Assembly: GCF_056746865.1 (NCBI RefSeq)
Contig: NZ_CM163382.1
Direction: 5' to 3' (one strand)
Length of the DNA: 64,000 nucleotides
The notes beneath the pieces were generated by a model. The model worked only from the letters and a program-made list of their open reading frames with translations, did not search any database and had not been told where the DNA came from. The translations under genes and the position numbers were made by a program. Below are positions 1,705 through 64,000 of this stretch, piece after piece (within the stretch, counting starts at the first letter, position 1; each line of letters opens with the position of its first letter).

Positions 1705-2193
1705 ATGAAGACCATTCTACCTGCAGTATTGTTTGCCGCTTTCGCCACCACTTCCGCCTGGGCGGCAGAAAGCGTCCAGCCACTGGAAAAAATCGCGCCT
1801 TATCCACAAGCTGAAAAAGGCATGAAGCGTCAGGTGATTCAGTTAACCCCGCAAGAAGATGAATCTACCCTGAAAGTAGAACTGTTAATCGGCCAGACGC
1901 TGGAAGTCGATTGCAATTTGCATCGTCTCGGCGGGAAGCTGGAAAGCAAAACGCTGGAAGGCTGGGGCTATGATTATTACGTCTTTGATAAAGTTAGCTC
2001 GCCGGTTTCGACGATGATGGCCTGCCCGGATGGCAAGAAAGAGAAGAAATTTGTCACCGCGTATCTGGGCGATGCCGGAATGCTGCGTTACAACAGCAAG
2101 CTGCCGATCGTGGTGTATACGCCAGACAATGTGGATGTGAAGTACCGCGTCTGGAAGGCGGAAGAGAAAATTGACAACGCGGTTGTTCGCTAA
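1705..2193 (+). CDS. eco: Ecotin, periplasmic serine protease inhibitor (162 aa)
   Basis: Translation [20 protein letters not shown]... with signal peptide; AGGAA Shine-Dalgarno ~10 nt before ATG at 1705; the longer ORF from 1684 is probably not the real start. Confidence 0.9.
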
Positions 2194-2214
2194 ACTACTG
2201 TGAAGTGCTGCAAC

Positions 2215-2340
2215 CCGTAGGCCGAATAAGGCGGTCACGCCGCATCCGATCCAACGCCCGAGCCGGTTGCCTGATGCGACGCTGGCGCGTCTTATCAGCA
2301 TACGCCACATCCGGCATACCATGCCGGATGTGGCACATCA
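2215..2340. repeat. REP/BIME palindromic elements between eco and mqo (convergent gene ends)
   Basis: Motifs GCCGCATCCG, GCCTGATGCGACGCTGGCGCGTCTTATCAG, GCCGGATGTGGC typical of E. coli REP units. Confidence 0.75.
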
Positions 2341-3999
<1,659 letters not shown>

Positions 4000-4165
4000 T
4001 TACTTTTAGTCGCTTTATTGCAGGTGAGATTTGCGCGGCATCAACGGTAACACTTAAGTAACAACATTTAAATAATGTTTATAAATTATATTCTAATTTT
4101 AGAAACATTATGATTTCGTTGATTAATTATAGGGTTATTAGAAATGAAGGGATTTTTAGCATATT

Positions 4166-4192
4166 GACCTGGCGGCAGCAGTCCGCCAGGTC
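4166..4192 (-). terminator. Perfect 10-bp inverted repeat hairpin (GACCTGGCGG-N7-CCGCCAGGTC) just downstream of yojI stop
   Basis: Inverted repeat read directly; no clean U-tract follows on either strand, so function as terminator is uncertain. Confidence 0.35.
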
Positions 4193-4204
4193 AGCGTCGT
4201 AATA

Positions 4205-5848
4205 TTATGCCGTCCGGGCAACGGCATCACGCGAAGCGGCATCGCGCTCTTCGCCCGTCAGCTCGCTAAGTTGCCCGTTGCGCATTTCCAGCAGGCGGTC
4301 GGCGTGGATAAAGTAATGATCATCATGACTGATGGCGAAAATCGTTTTACCCATCTCCTGCATCAGCGGCAGCAACACCTGATAAAACTCACGACGGAAG
4401 TGTGGGTCCTGATCCGCCGCCCATTCATCCAGCAGGATAATATCGCGTTCTTCTGCCAGCGCCAGCAACAGCGCGACGCGTTTTTTCTGCCCTTTCGATA
4501 ACTTCAGGTTAACAATACGCCCGTTGCTTAACTCAAGCTTATGAGCCATTTTCAGTTGCGCCAGCCACTTCTCAATCAGTTGCGGGTTAGCGGGTTGACC
4601 CTCCGGCCCCAGCAGTTGATCGAACAGCCAGACATCGGTAAACACTGCCGAAAACAGTTTGCGATAATCTTCCGGTTGTTCGCCGCTGACAGGTTTGCCA
4701 TCCAGCAAGATTTCGCCGCTTTGTGGCTGATACAAGCCCGTCAGCAACATCGCCAGCGTCGATTTTCCACTACCGTTGCCACCAATCAGAAACAGCAGCT
4801 CGCCACGTTTAATGGTGAGGTTAATCGGCCCAACGGAAAACGCATTATCCTGATAAGCAAACGTCACGTTACGCAGCTCCAGCGTTTGCCAGTTGGGAAA
4901 CGCCTGCGGGCGTGGAAACTCTGCTTTGAAAGGTGCGAGCGCGAATTTGTTCAGCTTGTTAAACGCCACCTGCGCCGTCAGCAGCGTCGGTAATGCGCCA
5001 ACCGCCGAAAGCAGCGGCGTACGCAGGAATAACAGCGTCAACGAATAGGTCGCGGCAACGTTGGTATCAGCCCAACCGAGACTGTTCGCCATCCAGAACA
5101 CCAGGCCGATTGCGCCCAGCATCATGATGTTTGACCAGTTCACGGCACTAAGATGGAAGGTGTCTGCGCGAATAATATGATGGCGATACTCTTGCGCATC
5201 AGGAATGTAGAGGTTGTTAAACACATACTCGGCGCGTTCCCGGTTCAGAGTCAGCTCTTTGCGCCCTTCGAGTACGGTTTGAAAATCCGTGTACAGCTTG
5301 TCTTCGGTTTCACGCAGGGTCGCCATATGTTTGTACACCCGCGCCACCAGCACAAAACCGCCCCAGATGGTGACTGCCATCCAGATAGCCGTTACCAGCA
5401 ACATTTTGCCCGACAGCATCCACAAGTACGCCGCGGAACCGATAGTGAGGATGATCCCCTGCACCAGTTCCGGCAGACGCACAAAAGCAATGGTGATATT
5501 GCGCACATCGCTGGTTAATCCCGCCAGCAACGAAGCGCTACCAAGTTGTTCAATGCGCTCGACGTGGGTATCCAGAATCCGCTTGATAAATTCGCTACGC
5601 AGTCGGTAAACGAAGTGATGGCCCAGCGTAGTAAGCGCCAGTTGCGATCCGAGAGTGACAGCCATCAACAGTAGCAATAATCCCAGAAACTCCGGCAACA
5701 CCAGCAGACTGGTATCTGCCGTTTCGATAAGACGCTGATTGATAAAAGCAATTAAGCCAATGCCTAATGCCGCACTGGCGAGGCTTAGCGCCATCACACT
5801 GATAAATGGCCAGCGATACTGCCGCCAGACAAGTACAAGAAGTTCCAT
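4205..5848 (-). CDS. yojI: ABC transporter, fused permease/ATP-binding (microcin J25 efflux type), 547 aa
   Basis: N-terminal TM domain plus Walker [13 protein letters not shown] signature LSKGQKKR, Walker B ILLDEW in translation. Confidence 0.88.
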
Positions 5849-57625: not shown

Positions 57626-58585
57626 ATGACCGAATCAACAACCTCCTCCCCGCATGATGCGGTGTTTAAAACCTTTATGTTCACACCCGAAACCGCTCGG
57701 GATTTTCTGGAAATACATCTACCAGAGCCGCTGCGCAAGCTTTGCAACCTGCAAACTTTACGCCTGGAACCCACCAGCTTTATTGAAAAAAGTTTACGCG
57801 CTTACTACTCGGATGTTTTGTGGTCTGTGGAAACCAGCGACGGTGAAGGCTATATCTACTGCGTGATTGAACATCAAAGCTCTGCAGAAAAGAATATGGC
57901 TTTTCGGCTAATGCGCTATGCCACTGCCGCCATGCAGCGTCACCTGGATAAAGGCTATGACAGAGTTCCGCTGGTGGTGCCATTGCTGTTTTATCATGGC
58001 GAAACCTCGCCCTACCCGTACTCACTCAACTGGCTGGATGAGTTTGACGATCCGCAACTTGCCCGGCAGTTGTACACCGAAGCTTTTCCGTTGGTGGATA
58101 TCACCATCGTACCTGACGATGAGATCATGCAACATCGGCGTATAGCTCTGCTGGAACTGATTCAAAAGCATATTCGCGACCGCGATTTAATCGGTATGGT
58201 CGACAGGATCACCACGCTTTTGGTTAGAGGCTTCACTAATGACAGCCAGCTACAAACGCTGTTTAATTATCTGCTGCAATGCGGCGATACCTCCCGTTTC
58301 ACCCGCTTTATTCAGGAGATTGCCGAACGTTCACCACTACAAAAGGAGAGATTAATGACTATTGCTGAACGGCTGCGGCAGGAAGGACATCAAATTGGCT
58401 GGCAGGAAGGTAAAATTGAAGGTTGGCAGGAGGGGAAATTGGAGGGGTTGCAGAAAGGCAAAGTAGAAGGTATGCATGAACAAGCCATTAAAATTGCCTT
58501 GCGCATGCTGGAACAGGGCTTTGAACGTGAGATTGTGCTGGCGACAACCCAACTCACTGATGCTGATATTCCGAACGGTCATTAA
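57626..58585 (+). CDS. rpnE: RpnE (YfaD), Rpn/YhgA-like recombination-promoting nuclease, PD-(D/E)xK transposase_31 family (319 aa)
   Basis: Translation [28 protein letters not shown]...YCVIEHQSS...; C-terminal repeat region [15 protein letters not shown]. Confidence 0.85.
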
Positions 58586-58597
58586 AAGGAGAGATTA

Positions 58598-58795
58598 ATG
58601 ACTATTGCTGAACGGCTACGGCAGGAAGGACATCAAATTGGCTGGCAGGAGGGTAAATTAGAAGGTTTGCAGGAAGGCATGCATGAACAAGCCATTAAAA
58701 TTGCTTTGCGCATGCTGGAACAGGGCATTGATCGTGACCTGGTGCTCGCGGCCACCCAGCTAAGCGAAGCCGATCTGGCAGCGAATAACCACTAA
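58598..58795 (+). CDS. ypaA: YpaA, small protein (65 aa) that is a tandem duplicate of the RpnE C-terminal module
   Basis: Translation [43 protein letters not shown]... nearly identical to the last ~77 aa of RpnE; own AAGGAGAG Shine-Dalgarno. Confidence 0.8.
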   Translation: MTIAERLRQEGHQIGWQEGKLEGLQEGMHEQAIKIALRMLEQGIDRDLVLAATQLSEADLAANNH

Positions 58796-58835
58796 TTAAC
58801 ACAGGCCCACAGCCGATCCCCATGGGCCTTTGATA

Positions 58836-59639
58836 TCAATAACTACCTTTTATGCGTGGCCCATTTTTGCCTGATTTAAACATCGCCAGTCGTTGATCCA
58901 GGGCATCGCTGTAGAGCATCGTGTCAACGCCAACAGCGACAAAGTTCGCTCCCCACGCCAGGCATTGCTGCGCCATATCAGGAGCCACAGCCAGAAAACC
59001 AGCCGCTTTACCCGCAGCACGGATCCGCCGAATGCTGGTTTCAATAATTCGCTGCACTTCCGGGTGCCCGGCGTTATCCGGGTAGCCCAACGAGGCAGAA
59101 AGATCCGCAGGTCCAATAAACACGCCGTCAATCCCTTCGACGTCGAGGATTTCGTCCAGGTTATCCAGTGCTGTTTTACTTTCCACCTGCACCAACAGAC
59201 AAAGCGAATCGTTGACTTGCGCCATGTAATTCTCAATGCGTCCCCAGCGCGCAGCCCGTGCCACACTGGCCCCGACACCACGCTCACCGTAGGGAGGATA
59301 GCGCGTGGCAGACACCACCTGACGTGCCTGATCGGCAGTATCGACCATCGGGATCAGTAGAGTTTGCGCGCCAATATCCAGGACTTGTTTAATCAGCGAC
59401 TTACTGCCTTCCACCGGACGGATCACGGGTTGGCTGGCATAGGGCGCTACCGCCTGTAGCTGGTGATAAAGATCCTGAATGGTGTTTGGCGCGTGCTCCC
59501 CGTCAATCAGCAACCAGTCATAACCGGAGGTGGCGGCAATTTCTGCCATATAAGAAGTAGTCGAGCTTAACCACAGACCAATTTGCACTTCGCCCTTGCG
59601 TAAACGTTCTTTAAAGGGATTGGTTAATAATGCGTTCAT
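58836..59639 (-). CDS. rhmA: 2-keto-3-deoxy-L-rhamnonate aldolase (267 aa)
   Basis: Translation [49 protein letters not shown]... (HpcH/HpaI aldolase family). Confidence 0.9.
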
Positions 59640-59655
59640 GGTGTTCCTTAACCTA

Positions 59656-60897
59656 TTAATGATGTGCCACGTCGGTCTGCGCAACAGTGCGATTTACACG
59701 CAGAGTGAAAATAATCAGCGAACCGATGACCGCCACCGCTGCCAGCGTCAGTAATCCCGCCGCATCGCTGGCAAACAACGTTTCTGCTTTCACGCGCAGG
59801 ATCGGGGCAATAAACCCACCCACTGCACCAAACAGGTTTACAAAACCAATCCCCGCCGCCAGCGCCGTACCGGAAAGCAGTTGTGTCGGCATCGTCCAGA
59901 ACACCGGCTGCACGGCAATAAACCCGATGGCTGCAACACACAGCGCTACGATCGCCAGTACTGGAGAAAGCAGCCCGGAGAGACCAATACCAATGCCTGC
60001 CGCCAGTAATGTCAGCGCCGCGACATTACGCCGTTCGCCGGTTTTATCGGAATAGCGCGGAATAAGCCAGGTCCCAAACAAGGCCGCGACCCACGGAATG
60101 GCGGTGACCACCGACGCCGTAAAGCCCACTTTTGTCCCCAACAATGCAGCAACCTGCGTCGGCAGGAAGAAAATTAATCCGTAAACCGCCACCTGAATGG
60201 TCAGGTAGATAATCGCCAGTTGCCAGACTCGCCCATTACGCAGCGCATCGCTCAGTCGAGAAGTCACTTTCTGTTGTTCTTCACTTGCCAGTTGGTTGAT
60301 AAGCAACGTTTTTTCTTCTTTACTCAGAAAACGTGCCTGCTCCGGCGTGTCATCAAGCCAAAAGAATGTGAATACCCCAGCGCCGACTGCCAGCAATCCT
60401 TCAATCACAAACATCCAGAACCAGCCGGGATGCCCCATAAATCCATGCATCTCCAGCAGCGCGCCGGAAAGCGGTGATCCCAGTGTTAACGCCAACGGTG
60501 CGCCCATATAGAACAGCCCCATAATGCTGGCGCGATTACGCTGCGGAAACCATTGCGAGGTGAGATAAATCATACCAGGGAAGAACCCGGCCTCCGCAGC
60601 ACCAAGCAGAGTGCGAACGATCAGAAATTTCGCTTCAGTATCGGCCCATGCCATGGCTGCCGAAAGAAATCCCCACAGCAGTGTTGTCGTACCAATCCAG
60701 GTTCTGGCCCCCAGTTTGCGCATCAAAAGATTCGCCGGAACACCCAGAAACGCATATACCACAAAGAAAATGCCTGCTCCCAGCGCATAAGCTTCATTAC
60801 TCAGCCCGGTATCAATCTGGTAGGTTTGTTTGGCAAAACCGATATTCGAACGGTCGAGAAACGCCAGCACATACAGCGCCAACTTGACATCCTCCAC
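59656..60897 (-). CDS. rhmT: L-rhamnonate MFS transporter RhmT, apparently 5'-truncated; ORF begins at a GTG inside the IS end
   Basis: Translation starts [24 protein letters not shown]..., lacking the usual cytoplasmic N-terminus and part of TM1; frame continues upstream into IS sequence. Confidence 0.75.
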
Positions 60898-62635
60898 GCC
60901 CTGAAGAACGTGGATCCCTGCTACGTTCAGGCTGTCGCCTGAATCATTTCGGTGGGTTCCTGCTTCAACGAGCGGCCTGACTGCACCATCTCTCCACAGG
61001 CAAGAACGGCGTGCCCCGCCGCTAAAATGTTACGAGCGCCATTTACATCGGCGTTCGCTGTATATCCACATACCTGGCATCTGAATTGACTTTGTGACAG
61101 GCGATTTTCTTTCGCAGTATGACCACAGCACGCGCAACGCTGGCTTGTGTACGCTGGCGGAACAGCAAGCAACTGACCGCCACTCCAGAGCTGCTTGTAC
61201 TCAAGCTGGCGGCGCATTTCATACCAGCCCTGATCCAGTATCGAACGGTTTAAACCTGATTTTGCCCGGACATTGCGCCCCGGCTGGCTGAGCGTACCCG
61301 CTGCTGACTTTGACATGTTGCTGACCTTCAAATCCTCAATGACTATCATTGCGTGGTTTTTGCTGACGGTCGTTGTGACTTTGTGAAGGTAGTCCCTGCG
61401 GATATTTGCGATACGGGAATGCAGTCGCTGTATTTTGCGTTTCTGCTTCTGCCAGTTGTTGCTGAATTTGACCCTGCGGCTTAACTGTCGCTGAAGTCTC
61501 GCCAGCTTCTTCTGGTTTTTCTGAAAACTGTTTACAGGCTCAAAGACTGTGCCATCTGACAGCGTGGCGAGTTTAGCCACGCCAGCATCCAGCCCGACCA
61601 TTGATGCTGAAGGGTGAACCGGAGTTGATACTTCACTTTCTGTCTGAATACTGATGTACCACTTACCGCAGGACTGGCTGACAGTGACATTTTTTACAAC
61701 ACCCGTGACCTGACGGCTGTTCCGGTAGCGCATCCAGCCCAGTTTCGGCAGAAAAATACGGCTGTTTTCCTGATCGAGCTTAACGCCCTGCGGATAGCGG
61801 AATGCATCATTCTGTCCCCGCTTTTTGAATCGGGGAAAAGCAGCCCGATTCTGGAAGAAGTTTTTGTAAGCCCGCTCAAGGTCTTTCAGTGACTGTTGCA
61901 ATGGCTGTGAGGGCGAATCTTTAAGCCATTGCGTTTCAGTGGCGTTTTTCCACTCAACCAGCCAGGAAGCCATTTTCCCGTAAGGGATGTATTTATTACC
62001 GGCCTCATGATTCTCATTCTGAAGCGCCAGAGCGCGATTGAAAACGAAACGACATGCGCCTGCGAAGCGCCTCATTTCACACTCCTGTTGACCACCTGGT
62101 CTTAACTGGAATTTAAATGCCTGTAATCGTTTCACAGGTCAAATGATACTTTGGTCTATGAAAAAAGAAACCGATATCCGGCGTGGAAGGCATTGTGTTT
62201 TCCTGATGCATGTTCACCTGGTCTTTGTCACCAAATACCGACGCCAGATTTTTGACCATGACGCGACAGAAAAACTACGCACTTACTTTTCAAATGTATG
62301 TGCTGATTTTGAAGCTGAACTGGTTGAAATGGATGGCGAACCAGATCACGTCCATTTGTTAATTAACTATCCTCCCAAACTGGCGATATCCAGTCTGGTA
62401 AACAGCCTCAAAGGCGTATCGGGTAGGTTACTGCGACGAGATCGACCAGATATTGCAGTCAGGTATTACTACAAAGGCGTTTTGTGGAGTCCTGGCTATT
62501 TTGCCAGTAGCTGCGGAGGTGCGCCAATATCCGTCATCCGCCAATACATTGAACAACAGCAAACACCTGGTCAGGTGGAAAACCGCGCCTTATATCCCCG
62601 CCCTGAAGGACGGGGTTTTACAGCGCACTGGATAA
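60887..62635 (-). mobile_element. IS200/IS605-family insertion sequence (~1.7 kb) with divergent tnpB and tnpA; boundaries approximate
   Basis: TnpB and Y1-transposase ORFs; both ends carry the same-orientation 17-nt motif CGCCCTGAAG(A/G)ACG(T/G)GG (60897-60913 and 62599-62615) embedded in imperfect hairpins. Confidence 0.75.
60927..62135 (-). CDS. tnpB: TnpB (OrfB), RuvC-like RNA-guided nuclease of the IS200/IS605 family (402 aa)
   Basis: Translation [37 protein letters not shown]..., C-terminal zinc-finger CACCGH...CQVCG and [10 protein letters not shown]. Confidence 0.88.
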
Positions 62636-62748
62636 AGTCATGGACTCAACAACCTCAATCCAGCCATGCTCACTGGCGATGTCCTGGCCGTTTAACCAAC
62701 GGCGCAGCATATTCAGTGCCATCATTGCGCACACTTCCTGACGGATAG
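62158..62748 (+). CDS. tnpA: IS200-like Y1 (HuH) transposase TnpA; 3' end uncertain, ORF reads through the element end into yfaY antisense
   Basis: Translation MKKETDIRRGRHCVFLMHVHLVFVTKYRRQ...HVHLL (HuH)...YYYKGVLWSPGYFASSCGGAPISVIRQYIEQQ; ORF is ~50 codons longer than typical TnpA. Confidence 0.65.
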   Translation: MKKETDIRRGRHCVFLMHVHLVFVTKYRRQIFDHDATEKLRTYFSNVCADFEAELVEMDGEPDHVHLLINYPPKLAISSLVNSLKGVSGRLLRRDRPDIAVRYYYKGVLWSPGYFASSCGGAPISVIRQYIEQQQTPGQVENRALYPRPEGRGFTAHWIKSWTQQPQSSHAHWRCPGRLTNGAAYSVPSLRTLPDG

Positions 62749-63826
62749 CCAGGCTGTAGCGCGTAGTGCTGAAACGCACACGCAGAGCGAAAGTGCCGTC
62801 TGGCGTGGCTAGCGCAAAGTTGAGATGTTCGTTCTCGAAACCAGAAACAGCCAGTGCCAGCCCGGCAAAATGGTTGGCCCGCCGTTCTGTAATCCAGTGC
62901 GCAGTTTGCGCCAGGGTTTCCTCCTGTGAAGGAACCACTTCACACGCCAGCAATGGAGCACCTGCGCGAGAAAGTTGCAAAGCCAATAAACCACCGGTGA
63001 ATTGCTCGCTCAACGTCAGGCTGAACTGGCGGTTTTGCAATTCGCGGCTGATCTGCGAGGGCAGTCCTTCGGTACCTTCGAAAATCACGCTCTGTCCGGC
63101 AACACGTTTAACGTCCAGCCACAGTTTTTCCATCGCCTGTTTCTCGCTTGCCGGTCCGGTGAGTTTCAGTTCGATAATCGGCATAGAAGAGCGATAGCCC
63201 ATTGTTACCCCCGGCGGCAGTTGCAGGGTGTCCAGGCTTTGTGCCAGATCGCTTTCCGAACGACCAAATGTAGTCAAACGCAGACAAACCGGCGGCTGCG
63301 GTAAAGAAAAACGCTCGCGCAGGCGCGGCAGGATTTCGTGCTCGACCATCACCTTAAATTCTGACGGTACGCCGGGGGTAAAGAACATCAGGCAACGATT
63401 AAGCTGCACGGCAAAACCACAGGCGGTGCCTACCGGGTTATTGATAAATTCAGCACTGGCAGGTAGCTCCGCTTGTTTACGGTTGCTCGGTGTCATTACT
63501 CGTCCACGTTCGTGGAAATAGCGTTCCATCTCTTTGAGCCAGGCCTCATGCAGCACCAGGCCTTCACCTTTTGCTGTTGCAGCGGCGAGTGCGCTTAAAT
63601 CATCACTGGTCGGCCCCAGCCCGCCGTTAACGATCAGCACATCGGCGTGCTGACTCCGTTCGCGAAGAATGGTCACTAAGTCATCAAGGTTATCTCCCAC
63701 CGTATTGCGGCGAGATAATGGCAACCCCTGATGAAAGAAAAAATCGGCCAGCCAGGCAGCGTTAGTGTCAACGATTTGCCCGTGTAACACTTCATCCCCG
63801 GTGGATAGCATTTCCACTTTTAACAT
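62618..63826 (-). CDS. yfaY: YfaY, CinA-like molybdopterin-binding (MoCF) domain protein (402 aa)
   Basis: Translation MLKVEMLSTGDEVLHGQIVDTNAAWLADFFFHQGLPLSRRNTVGDNLDDL...; stop abuts the right-end IS hairpin. Confidence 0.85.
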   Translation of the reverse strand: MLKVEMLSTGDEVLHGQIVDTNAAWLADFFFHQGLPLSRRNTVGDNLDDLVTILRERSQHADVLIVNGGLGPTSDDLSALAAATAKGEGLVLHEAWLKEMERYFHERGRVMTPSNRKQAELPASAEFINNPVGTACGFAVQLNRCLMFFTPGVPSEFKVMVEHEILPRLRERFSLPQPPVCLRLTTFGRSESDLAQSLDTLQLPPGVTMGYRSSMPIIELKLTGPASEKQAMEKLWLDVKRVAGQSVIFEGTEGLPSQISRELQNRQFSLTLSEQFTGGLLALQLSRAGAPLLACEVVPSQEETLAQTAHWITERRANHFAGLALAVSGFENEHLNFALATPDGTFALRVRFSTTRYSLAIRQEVCAMMALNMLRRWLNGQDIASEHGWIEVVESMTLSSAL

Positions 63827-63896
63827 GGTTATCTCCTGCTTTTGTTATCGAATCACTATAACGCAAAGGAAGATAAGGCGTAGTAAGAAACTGAAT

Positions 63897-63917
63897 GGCG
63901 CGACAGAATGCCGCGCC
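63897..63917 (-). terminator. Hairpin (GGCGCG-N9-CGCGCC) just downstream of yfaZ stop, possible terminator
   Basis: Inverted repeat read directly; moderately T-rich on reverse strand after the stem. Confidence 0.4.
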
Positions 63918-63925
63918 GGAAGGGA

Positions 63926-64000
63926 TCAGAAACTGGCGTTAACCCCAACATACGGGCCGTCAGCCACGGCGTTGTCGCGGTTACCGTCTTTACCAGAAAG
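63926..64000 (-). CDS. yfaZ: Outer membrane protein YfaZ, C-terminal end only (gene begins beyond window)
   Basis: Reverse strand reads ...GPYVGVNASF-stop, a typical beta-barrel C-terminus; expected neighbour of yfaY. Confidence 0.6.
   Translation of the reverse strand, partial: LSGKDGNRDNAVADGPYVGVNASF

Follow-up and report, generated by a model that had tools for sequence, protein, structure and literature searches.

A complete IS609 element in place of 2,348 bp of the L-rhamnonate operon locus of Escherichia coli

The rhm locus and the IS609 element

The DNA analysed here (the window) is a stretch of 64,000 nucleotides from contig NZ_CM163382.1 of NCBI RefSeq assembly GCF_056746865.1. At the locus described, 2,348 bp of ancestral L-rhamnonate operon DNA have given way to a complete IS609 element (Table 1). 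BLASTN against K-12 MG1655 gives two collinear blocks, window 58794–60883 and 62631–63994, between which K-12 locus positions 2092–4438 are absent. The exact limits of the deletion were taken from the junction analysis, not from the ends of the BLASTN blocks, and the replaced ancestral segment corresponds to K-12 NC_000913.3 2360091–2362438. Lost from the ancestral locus are the last two codons and the stop codon of yfaY, the yfaY-yfaX intergenic region, rhmR (yfaX), rhmD, the rhmD-rhmT spacer, and codons 1–21 of rhmT. The four-gene operon rhmRDTA is therefore incomplete at this locus, with rhmR, rhmD, and both upstream spacers absent. The rhmA gene is intact and is now preceded only by the remainder of rhmT, designated rhmT'. 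At the other end of the element, the YfaY C terminus, ...TLSV* in K-12, has become ...TLSSAL*, its stop codon being supplied by the IS. A preliminary description of this DNA had recognized the truncation of rhmT, which is real, but it missed the 2,348-bp deletion with the loss of rhmD and rhmR.

Table 1. Features of the locus, in window coordinates
Feature	Position	Strand	Remarks
rhmA (yfaU), 2-keto-3-deoxy-L-rhamnonate aldolase	58836..59639	-	NF007521, 596 bits, positions 1-267 of 267; RefSeq CDS
rhmT' (yfaV), native part of L-rhamnonate MFS transporter gene	59656..60883	-	K-12 codons 22-429
RE-adjacent flank GTTGGCGCTGTATGTG (rhmT nt 63-78)	60868..60883	-	position from junction comparison
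Candidate omega-RNA (reRNA) region	60871..60994	-	3' end of tnpB across RE into flank; hint only
Fusion zone with three candidate rhmT-frame starts	60880..60930	-	CTG, GTG, TTG
Full-length IS609-type IS200/IS605 element, 1,748 bp	60884..62631	-	top strand on window minus strand
RE subterminal hairpin TCCACGT / GCGTGGA	60893..60914	-	DNA fold; 9 nt before TCAA cleavage site
tnpB (insQ), 402-aa RNA-guided endonuclease	60927..62135	-	NF040570, E=4e-116, 388 bits
tnpA (Y1 HUH transposase)	62143..62748	+	NF033573, E=4e-43
LE subterminal hairpin	62585..62626	-	DNA fold; core CCCCGTCC-TTCA-GGGCGGGG at 62615-62596
yfaY (CinA-family gene)	62618..63826	-	C terminus rewritten by IS609 left end
TTAT target/TAM	62632..62635	-	immediately 5' of LE, within last yfaY codons

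The left end (LE) of the element begins CCAGTGCGC at 62631, and the right end (RE) finishes GATGTCAA at 60884. Over positions 1–1745 of a 1,747-nt query, the element is ~98% identical to copies at five other loci, all with different flanks, and these five copies define the RE as ending in GGAGGATGTCAA. Identity is 97–98% to the K-12-type copy adjacent to ydcO and to a copy annotated as "IS609 family transposase," the comparison in both cases being with genomic copies. The LE and RE hairpins share CGTyC-TTCA-GGGCG, and terminal inverted repeats are absent. TnpB appears intact, with the RuvC motifs GLDAG, IEDL, and NADVNGA as well as a CxxC...CxxC zinc finger when aligned to 8bf8 and 9yyg.

The tnpA gene is flagged as a pseudogene by RefSeq. 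Its normal stop codon (62572–62574) reads CAG here, so that the open reading frame runs across the LE into yfaY antisense, and this loss explains the RefSeq remark "missing C-terminus." The remark could be taken to mean that the IS is a truncated fragment, but this was rejected because the same ends are seen in the five other copies and agree with two empty sites, which together fix the boundaries of the element. The stop codon is also lost in most sampled E. coli IS609 copies; the copy in strain TUM14759 has it. Alignment to solved TnpA structures shows that the HUH motif (HVH) and the catalytic tyrosine (RQYIEQQ) are present; the present-day transposase activity of a tnpA lacking its stop codon is uncertain.

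The frequency of the allele was determined by junction searches in 5,426 complete E. coli genomes. The yfaY-LE junction occurs in 187 of them, the RE-rhmT junction in 189, and the intact yfaY-yfaX junction in 5,217. E. coli 042, the enteroaggregative reference strain, and 184 other genomes are 100% identical to the window over 5.1 kb, and across the region no carrier of the allele falls below 99% identity.

The truncated rhmT and its expression

Homology to K-12 yfaV stops at 60883, and the next base, 60884, is the RE of IS609. The nucleotide identity of window 58794–60883 to the K-12 locus is 97.6%, and the match ends 62 nt short of the K-12 yfaV start. When the pairwise comparison with K-12 RhmT was run, residues M1–M21 (MSTALLDAVVKKNRVRLIPFM) were found to have no counterpart in the window, and the remainder of rhmT' was free of frameshifts and internal stops. 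K-12 RhmT and four of four further intact E. coli orthologues start 21 codons upstream of this point. The proposals that rhmT is 5'-truncated and that its beginning is a junction fusion rather than a native start are borne out, the rhmT homology ending at the last base before the RE. The frame does stay open upstream into the IS, as proposed, to a TAA at 61032–61030, and crosses the RE hairpin (60914–60893) on the way. We consider it highly probable that an IS609-associated deletion removed the 5' end of rhmT in this window and left only a remnant of the gene.

Three codons in the fusion zone could serve as starts in the rhmT frame. A GTG had been described as the only one available; an open reading frame at 60897..59656 on the minus strand does begin with this GTG (60897–60895), which lies inside the 3' arm of the RE hairpin, but a TTG and a CTG are in frame as well. 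The TTG at 60882–60880 corresponds to Leu-22 of K-12 RhmT and has GGAGGA upstream with an 8-nt spacer. The CTG and GTG belong to the IS and are in frame by chance. RefSeq/PGAP places the start at the CTG (60930–60928), overlapping the tnpB TGA, which gives a protein of 424 amino acids at 59656–60930 (WP_042004878.1). CTG is a very rare start codon in bacteria. That this model is right, with the first 16 residues of an MFS transporter encoded by the IS, is hardly credible: the frame is open and PGAP annotates it so, but the CTG overlaps the tnpB stop codon within IS sequence and lacks a Shine-Dalgarno sequence, the same 47 nt are present at every IS609 copy whatever gene adjoins, and the codon appears to have been picked only to approach the usual length of the transporter family. 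The RefSeq entry WP_042004878.1, listed as an intact "MFS transporter," is better described as a truncated remnant.

To assess what has been lost, transmembrane segment 1 (TM1) was placed by family conservation and not by structure; a PDB search for a close RhmT structure returned only distant DgoT and sialin matches. The cytoplasmic N terminus is gone, as first described, but the statement that half of TM1 is missing is somewhat overstated. The first ~5–6 hydrophobic residues are missing, and nine hydrophobic residues before the mid-membrane Asp of TM1 are kept. Among 121 diverse full-length homologues, the N terminus before the conserved TM1 Asp-Arg has a median length of 37 residues. At least 21 residues precede the TM1 Asp in 97.5% of the homologues and 14 or fewer in only 3 of the 121, compared with 9–14 in RhmT'. 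The lost motif K/R-x3-R-L-I-P-F is conserved across the transporter family (K/R in 109 of 118, R in 103 of 118, and P in 109 of 118). RhmT' thus lacks the cationic cytoplasmic N terminus, including all four positive charges, and the R-L-I-P-F start of TM1. It keeps the TM1 Asp-Arg, the membrane-embedded residues from Leu-22 on, and the rest of the 12-TM core. From the sequence comparison, we infer that RhmT' would have lost transport activity.

The same protein still gives MFS/ACS-family HMM matches, and TIGR00893 covers profile positions 2–398 of 399, so that the core defined by the profile is retained. With the membrane-embedded residues kept from Leu-22 on and GGAGGA 8 nt before the in-frame TTG, a shortened but active transporter may be made. 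It is improbable, in our estimate, that RhmT' is a working transporter translated from TTG 60882 or GTG 60897 on tnpB read-through and kept together with rhmA, perhaps for another substrate. The 408–413-codon open reading frame and rhmA are both intact, the Shine-Dalgarno-like GGAGGA in the IS end is ideally spaced, and no terminator follows tnpB. However, the K/R...R-L-I-P-F motif is lost and the N terminus is outside the family range, and the RE hairpin together with TnpB binding to an omega-RNA scaffold would compete with ribosomes. Because the carriers are at least 99% identical, the intact reading frame may simply reflect a recent event; the intact rhmT' and rhmA frames fit either a recent event or continued use.

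Expression of rhmT only by read-out from the IS had been proposed, and by elimination the locus points the same way, as the native upstream regions are deleted and the gene now immediately upstream, in the same orientation, is tnpB. There is no terminator-like site between the tnpB stop and rhmT, and a crude sigma-70 scan revealed no minus-strand promoter reading into rhmT. Because the native promoter and regulator are deleted, rhmT'-rhmA would be transcribed only by read-through from tnpB or its 3' guide RNA. Most likely, rhmT' is a promoterless remnant that can be transcribed only by tnpB read-out. The loss of rhmD and rhmR would by itself break the L-rhamnonate pathway, and without rhmD, L-rhamnonate catabolism is predicted to be lost whether or not the transporter works. 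Strain 042 and the other carriers, about 3.5% of complete E. coli genomes, are predicted natural rhmR/rhmD nulls, a prediction that matters for metabolic models of carrier strains. A literature search for rhamnonate in strain 042 found nothing.

Deletion junctions and the origin of the allele

Both deletion junctions lie exactly 3' of TTAT. On the rhmT side, the base directly after TTAT in intact rhmT now adjoins the RE (...TCAA). In the five intact strains inspected (K-12, 1EC187, isolate 624, Res13-Lact-PER13-34, and JNEC-KY178), the ancestral sequence at the junction points, marked by a slash, is TTAT/CTGTC or TTAT/CCGTC in yfaY and TTTAT/GTTGGCG in rhmT, and the two TTAT sites are exactly 2,348 bp apart in all five. 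On that strand, TTAT is found at 0.67% of positions, and a deletion endpoint would therefore fall there by chance with p ~0.007.

Two empty sites are available for IS609, one at K-12 yeaQ/yoaG and one in a TetR-family gene in strain ST2747. Both show precise insertion 3' of TTAT, without duplication or loss, and a TTAT 5' flank is common to six IS609 copies. Among IS605 elements that carry TnpB, the cleavage motifs seen most often are TTAT at the LE and TCAA at the RE (PMC9956272). Since the two empty sites identify TTAT as the IS609 target, both junctions of the deletion bear the transposase signature. A longer target, TTATC, was considered because K-12 yfaY reads TTATC, and was discarded because the yeaQ/yoaG and TetR-gene empty sites assign the C to the IS. 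Derivation of the T at position -5 of the yfaY junction from the rhmT site was likewise rejected, as intact relatives already have ACTTTAT. The TetR-gene site is a simple insertion and not a second instance of an IS609-adjacent deletion.

Both junctions have the form made by a single-strand "peel-and-paste" transposase, which suggests that the deletion came from transposase chemistry at the two TTAT sites. Two routes could lead to the allele. Either IS609 inserted twice in the same orientation and homologous recombination then took place between the copies, or it inserted once, into the yfaY site, and its RE, still in place, was then joined to the downstream TTAT by intramolecular strand transfer.

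The first route is quite possible, though short of an even chance. IS609 copies in the same orientation would have occupied the yfaY and rhmT TTAT sites, and RecA-dependent recombination of the 1.7-kb direct repeats would have deleted the 2,348 bp. Known reactions suffice for this, both junctions being canonical simple-insertion junctions. The IS top strand and both TTAT sites are on the gene-sense strand, which by K-12 coordinates would be the lagging-strand template of the replichore. Two insertions would therefore naturally share their orientation, and a local hop at the replication fork is one possible source of two such neighbors. Against this route, neither single-insertion junction (rhmT..TTTAT/LE or RE/CTGTCTGA, searched as synthetic junctions) was found in any of the 5,426 complete genomes. 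IS609 is also a low-copy element (median of 2 matching places per genome), mostly at conserved sites, so that two insertions within 2.3 kb would need strongly local transposition.

The second route we regard as a tentative possibility. After one insertion at the yfaY TTAT, TnpA would cut the RE in situ after TCAA as well as the rhmT TTAT and join the RE to GTTGGCG. The guide sequence of the LE would recognize the rhmT TTAT, and the 2,348-nt segment would leave as a single-stranded circle. The product is what the integration chemistry established for IS608 predicts if the RE-flank joint substitutes for the RE-LE circle junction. The event would be intrinsically local, and no single-insertion intermediates were seen among the 5,426 complete genomes. 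On the other hand, 15 other TTAT sites within the segment would have been skipped, the LE must disengage from its own flanking TTAT, and the literature search found no such reaction for IS200/IS605 elements, nor anything on the IS609 mechanism or on adjacent deletions in the IS605 family.

A third origin is very improbable. Here IS609 would have inserted once, at the rhmT TTAT, and replication would then have slipped between two 5-bp TTTAT repeats, one in yfaY and one abutting the LE. TTTAT is present at both sites in close intact relatives and slippage would yield yfaY..TTTAT/LE, but repeats of 5 bp separated by 2.3 kb are very poorly suited to slippage, the segment contains five further TTTAT sites, and a random deletion has no need to end exactly at an IS boundary.

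The RE junction also bears on TnpB. The tnpB gene ends 43 nt before the RE, and a guide RNA leaving the RE would therefore take the flank as its guide. Rfam matches in this region are sub-threshold (HgcC, 20.1 bits against a gathering threshold, GA, of 50; RAGATH-18, 29.5 bits against a GA of 44.9). If the element behaves like the TnpB systems already characterized, GTTGGCGCTGTATGTG would be the 16-nt guide of this putative omega-RNA. If so, a nuclease with the guide GTTGGCGCTGTATGTG would cut an incoming intact rhmT, which carries TTAT followed by GTTGGCGCTGTATGTG, and such cutting would protect the deletion allele from recombinational repair. The combined proposal, that TnpA made the deletion from a single resident copy by joining its RE to a TTAT 2.3 kb away, thereby re-programming the TnpB guide and shielding the allele, is somewhat unlikely. 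If true, it would represent an adjacent-deletion activity so far undescribed for single-strand peel-and-paste (IS200/IS605) transposons. The locus is an ordinary IS-associated deletion scar and does not overturn current understanding. The TTAT-to-TTAT replacement is a clean natural case in which to study a possible capacity of IS200/IS605 transposases for adjacent deletion, and the re-targeting of the TnpB guide that would go with it.

Comparison with known systems

IS1, IS10, and IS26 are classical DDE elements with IS-mediated adjacent deletions. The present allele resembles those deletions in that host DNA beside one IS end is lost and the junction falls at a transposase target. The DDE deletions arise by intramolecular double-strand transposition, whereas a Y1 single-strand equivalent was not found in the literature search.

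IS608 (ISHp608) from Helicobacter pylori is the mechanistic model for peel-and-paste transposition by a Y1 HUH TnpA. The IS609 TnpA aligns to the IS608 TnpA structures 2a6m and 2vhg with E ~5e-20. The two elements share subterminal LE and RE hairpins and an RE that ends in TCAA. Both lack terminal inverted repeats, and both insert 3' of a fixed tetranucleotide without duplicating the target. They differ in the target, which is TTAT here and TTAC for IS608, in the divergent arrangement of tnpA and tnpB, which is that of IS605, and in the loss of the tnpA stop codon.

TnpB aligns over its full length to ISDra2 TnpB (8bf8, E=8e-55), and the RuvC D/E/D motifs and the zinc finger are intact. The TAM would be TTAT in place of TTGAT, and the sequence matched by the proposed guide is that of intact rhmT alleles rather than of an intergenic donor joint. 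ISDra2 TnpB with its omega-RNA is a homing endonuclease, whereas the omega-RNA here is a candidate from sub-threshold Rfam matches.

With respect to K-12 RhmT (YfaV) and the rhmRDTA operon (yfaXWVU), rhmT' and rhmA are orthologous and syntenic (97.6% nucleotide identity). In contrast to K-12, rhmR and rhmD are absent, and rhmT lacks codons 1–21 and its native upstream region.

The closest relative of the element is IS609 of E. coli itself, including the K-12 copy insQ/ydcM next to ydcO, which has the same ends, the same divergent tnpA and tnpB, and about 98% identity. At the two IS609 sites for which an empty allele is known, the insertion is precise, whereas at the rhm locus the element stands in place of 2,348 bp of host DNA.

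IS609 in place of the 5' end of rhmT

Comparison of the window with the K-12 MG1655 locus by BLASTN gives two collinear blocks. The first (58794-60883) stops 62 nt before the yfaV (rhmT) start, and the second (62631-63994) matches the body of yfaY. The 1,747-nt insert shares ~98% identity over positions 1-1745 with copies at other loci (ydcO/ydcL, yeaQ/yoaG, yedK, yfeD/gltX, and a TetR-family gene) and is matched in 5,014 of 5,426 genomes; one copy is annotated as IS609. Its ends were set by alignment of five copies with differing flanks. The top strand of the element, which is the window minus strand, terminates in ...GGAGGATGTCAA, and yTTAT is found 5' of every aligned copy. Two empty alleles, K-12 yeaQ/yoaG and the TetR-family gene of strain ST2747, reveal precise insertion 3' of TTAT without duplication or loss, and place the element start at CC(A/G)GTGCGC. 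The insertion sequence is complete. The subterminal hairpins at the left (LE) and right end (RE) are related to each other, TnpB can be aligned from end to end with ISDra2 TnpB, its RuvC and zinc-finger motifs being intact, and in TnpA both the HUH motif and the catalytic Tyr are retained. A survey of TnpB-carrying elements lists TTAT for LE and TCAA for RE as the most frequent cleavage motifs (PMC9956272).

Features of the locus in window coordinates
Feature	Position	Strand	Remark
yfaY	63826-62618	minus	first in minus-strand order
IS609	60884-62631	minus (top strand)	1,748 bp
tnpA	from 62143	plus	in IS200/IS605 element
tnpB/insQ	62135-60927	minus	in IS200/IS605 element
CTG start candidate	60930-60928	minus	non-canonical; RefSeq choice
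GTG start candidate	60897	minus	within 3' arm of RE hairpin (60914-60893)
TTG start candidate	60882	minus	K-12 Leu22; GGAGGA 8 nt before
MFS transporter ORF (rhmT')	60897-59656	minus
rhmA/yfaU	59639-58836	minus	after rhmT'

The tnpA stop position (62572-62574) is CAG instead of TAG and the ORF continues over LE to 62748, which explains its pseudogene flag in RefSeq. Of the five other sampled IS609 copies, four share the CAG of the window, and the stop is TAG in strain TUM14759 (L003); RefSeq flags the CAG copies as pseudogenes. With this read-out across LE, the C-terminal tail of TnpA differs by locus (also at the IS609 loci L004-L007), and in the window it consists of 58 extra residues antisense to yfaY. 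The divergent starts of tnpB (GTG) and tnpA (ATG) are just 7 nt apart, so that each promoter must lie within the other gene; a sigma-70 scan gave no tnpB promoter candidate. In the convergent genes yedK, ydcO, and yfeD at three further loci (L005, L006, and L007, each at 401-404), the closing TGA comes from the first RE bases (T/TGA...). Read on the opposite strand, the TTAT target is ATAA, with a TAA stop in it. It may therefore be common for surviving IS609 insertions to lie on a stop codon that is replaced in register.

Five intact strains were compared: K-12, 1EC187, isolate 624, and the close relatives Res13-Lact-PER13-34 and JNEC-KY178. In these, yfaY ends in ...GAC(C/T)TTAT/C(T/C)GTCTGA, and rhmT contains ...CCGTTTAT/GTTGGCGCTG exactly 2,348 bp downstream of the yfaY site (slashes mark junctions). 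In the window, these 2,348 bp of the ancestral locus are replaced by IS609, and the junctions read yfaY...TTTAT/LE and RE...TCAA/GTTGGCGCTG. Judged by these sequences, each junction is of the canonical transposase type, at a TTAT site of its own. Because TTAT occurs at 0.67% of minus-strand positions, chance alone is unlikely to put the RE junction directly behind one (p ~0.007); 15 other TTAT sites lie within the deleted segment. Lost are the last two yfaY codons and the stop, the yfaY-yfaX spacer (219 nt), rhmR (yfaX), rhmD, the rhmD-rhmT spacer (56 nt), and rhmT codons 1-21. The C terminus of YfaY is rewritten by LE from ...TLSV-stop to ...TLSSAL-stop (62618-62634), with the new stop inside the IS.

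A 5.1-kb stretch of the window is 100% identical to Escherichia coli 042 (NC_017626.1) and 184 other complete genomes. The IS-associated truncation and deletion are real but of an ordinary kind, and the strain is well known.

Candidate starts and N terminus of the truncated transporter

The preliminary description of rhmT as 5'-truncated, with its frame running into the IS, is borne out: K-12 homology ends at 60883, residues M1-M21 of K-12 RhmT are replaced by IS-encoded residues, and the frame is open upstream as far as a TAA at 61032-61030. The GTG taken there as the sole available start is one of three candidates. The RefSeq record of 042 gives yfaV as a 424-residue "MFS transporter" at window 59656-60930, exactly the span of the preliminary description; this start overlaps the tnpB stop codon, and the sequence there is CTG. 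The label of an intact transporter is a mis-annotation. Farther along, an Rpn-family (YhgA-like) gene (rpnE, 57626-58585) is annotated as "ISNCY family transposase." The 65-residue ORF after it (58598-58795) repeats the C-terminal ~65 residues of rpnE and is a ypaA-like partial duplicate, the K-12 counterpart of which is likewise annotated as a pseudogene.

K-12 RhmT, searched against 1.84 billion representative proteins, yielded 121 full-length-like homologues with a residue aligned to Asp-31, and 116 of these have Asp-Arg at that position. The Asp position is preceded by a median of 37 residues (5th percentile 27), with 14 or fewer in only 3 of the 121. The window protein has 14 such residues when started at GTG, 9 at TTG, and 25, mostly foreign, at CTG. 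Conserved positions in the lost segment are Lys-12 (Lys/Arg in 109/118), Arg-16 (Arg in 103/118), Leu-17, Pro-19 (109/118), and Phe-20. They belong to a strongly conserved motif of the RhmT homologues (P0001-P0150), (R/K)-K-x3-R-L-(I/L)-P-(F/L), at K-12 residues 11-20, just before and at the start of TM1, which the NCBIfam profile TIGR00893 omits. Because homologue N termini are longer and the lost positions are strongly conserved, the start of the window protein is not that of full-length orthologues. The reported loss of the cytoplasmic N terminus stands, whereas that of about half of TM1 is better given as a shortening of the hydrophobic stretch before Asp from ~14 to 9 residues. Four N-terminal positive charges give way to Glu, Asp, and Lys. 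Although the remainder of the core is preserved (TIGR00893 positions 2-398 of 399), comparison with the homologues suggests that a non-functional or badly impaired RhmT' is the likelier outcome. The dehydratase RhmD is part of the L-rhamnonate pathway, and its loss at the locus is predicted to break the pathway as defined in K-12, whatever the state of the transporter.

Transcription of rhmT' and the TnpB guide

The native rhmT control region and the regulator are deleted. The GTG lies 30 nt and the TTG 45 nt beyond the end of tnpB on the same strand, with no terminator-like sites between tnpB and the rhmT' starts. By elimination, this leaves read-out from the IS as the one evident source of rhmT' transcripts. 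In characterized TnpB elements, the guide RNA is transcribed across RE into the flank. An Rfam search of 60871-61000 (minus strand) gave only sub-threshold matches to HgcC (RF00062, 20 bits) and RAGATH-18 (RF03064, 29.5 bits), which reach from ~70 nt before the end of tnpB through RE to 13 nt inside rhmT; a TnpB guide RNA would be expected in this region. The deletion would leave TnpB with a putative guide against intact rhmT alleles, which, together with the exact TTAT-to-TTAT replacement it results from, is of mild interest.

Distribution and origin of the deletion

Of 5,426 genomes, 5,217 have the intact yfaY-yfaX junction, 187 the yfaY-LE junction, and 189 the RE-rhmT junction. All ~187-189 carriers of the deletion allele share 99% identity or more across the region, which fits a single origin, and the intact rhmT' and rhmA ORFs are therefore uninformative about selection. 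The whole 5.1 kb is found in 185 genomes, and the differing counts point to a few carriers with secondary rearrangements on the LE/yfaY side, in which the predicted single-insertion junctions are absent.

Two IS609 insertions in the same orientation, followed by homologous recombination between the copies, give the observed product. Alternatively, one insertion at the yfaY site may have been followed by intramolecular strand transfer by TnpA from the in-situ RE to the downstream TTAT. This would be the integration reaction with the RE-flank junction substituting for the circle junction, and it would free the deleted segment as a single-stranded circle; against it, we found no published description of such a reaction for the IS200/IS605 family. 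Single-insertion intermediates, searched as both synthetic junctions, had no match (0/5,426 genomes). The data are compatible with double insertion and with strand transfer alike and do not separate them. An rhmT insertion followed by slippage between two TTTAT pentamers is unlikely, because a 5-bp repeat at 2.3 kb separation is a poor substrate and a random deletion is under no constraint to end at the IS boundary. The TTAT-to-TTAT replacement may reflect a previously undescribed intramolecular activity of this peel-and-paste transposase. The top strand of the element coincides with the sense strand of the genes and, going by K-12 coordinates, the locus lies in the left replichore; this orientation would fit the lagging-strand-template bias known for IS200/IS605 elements.
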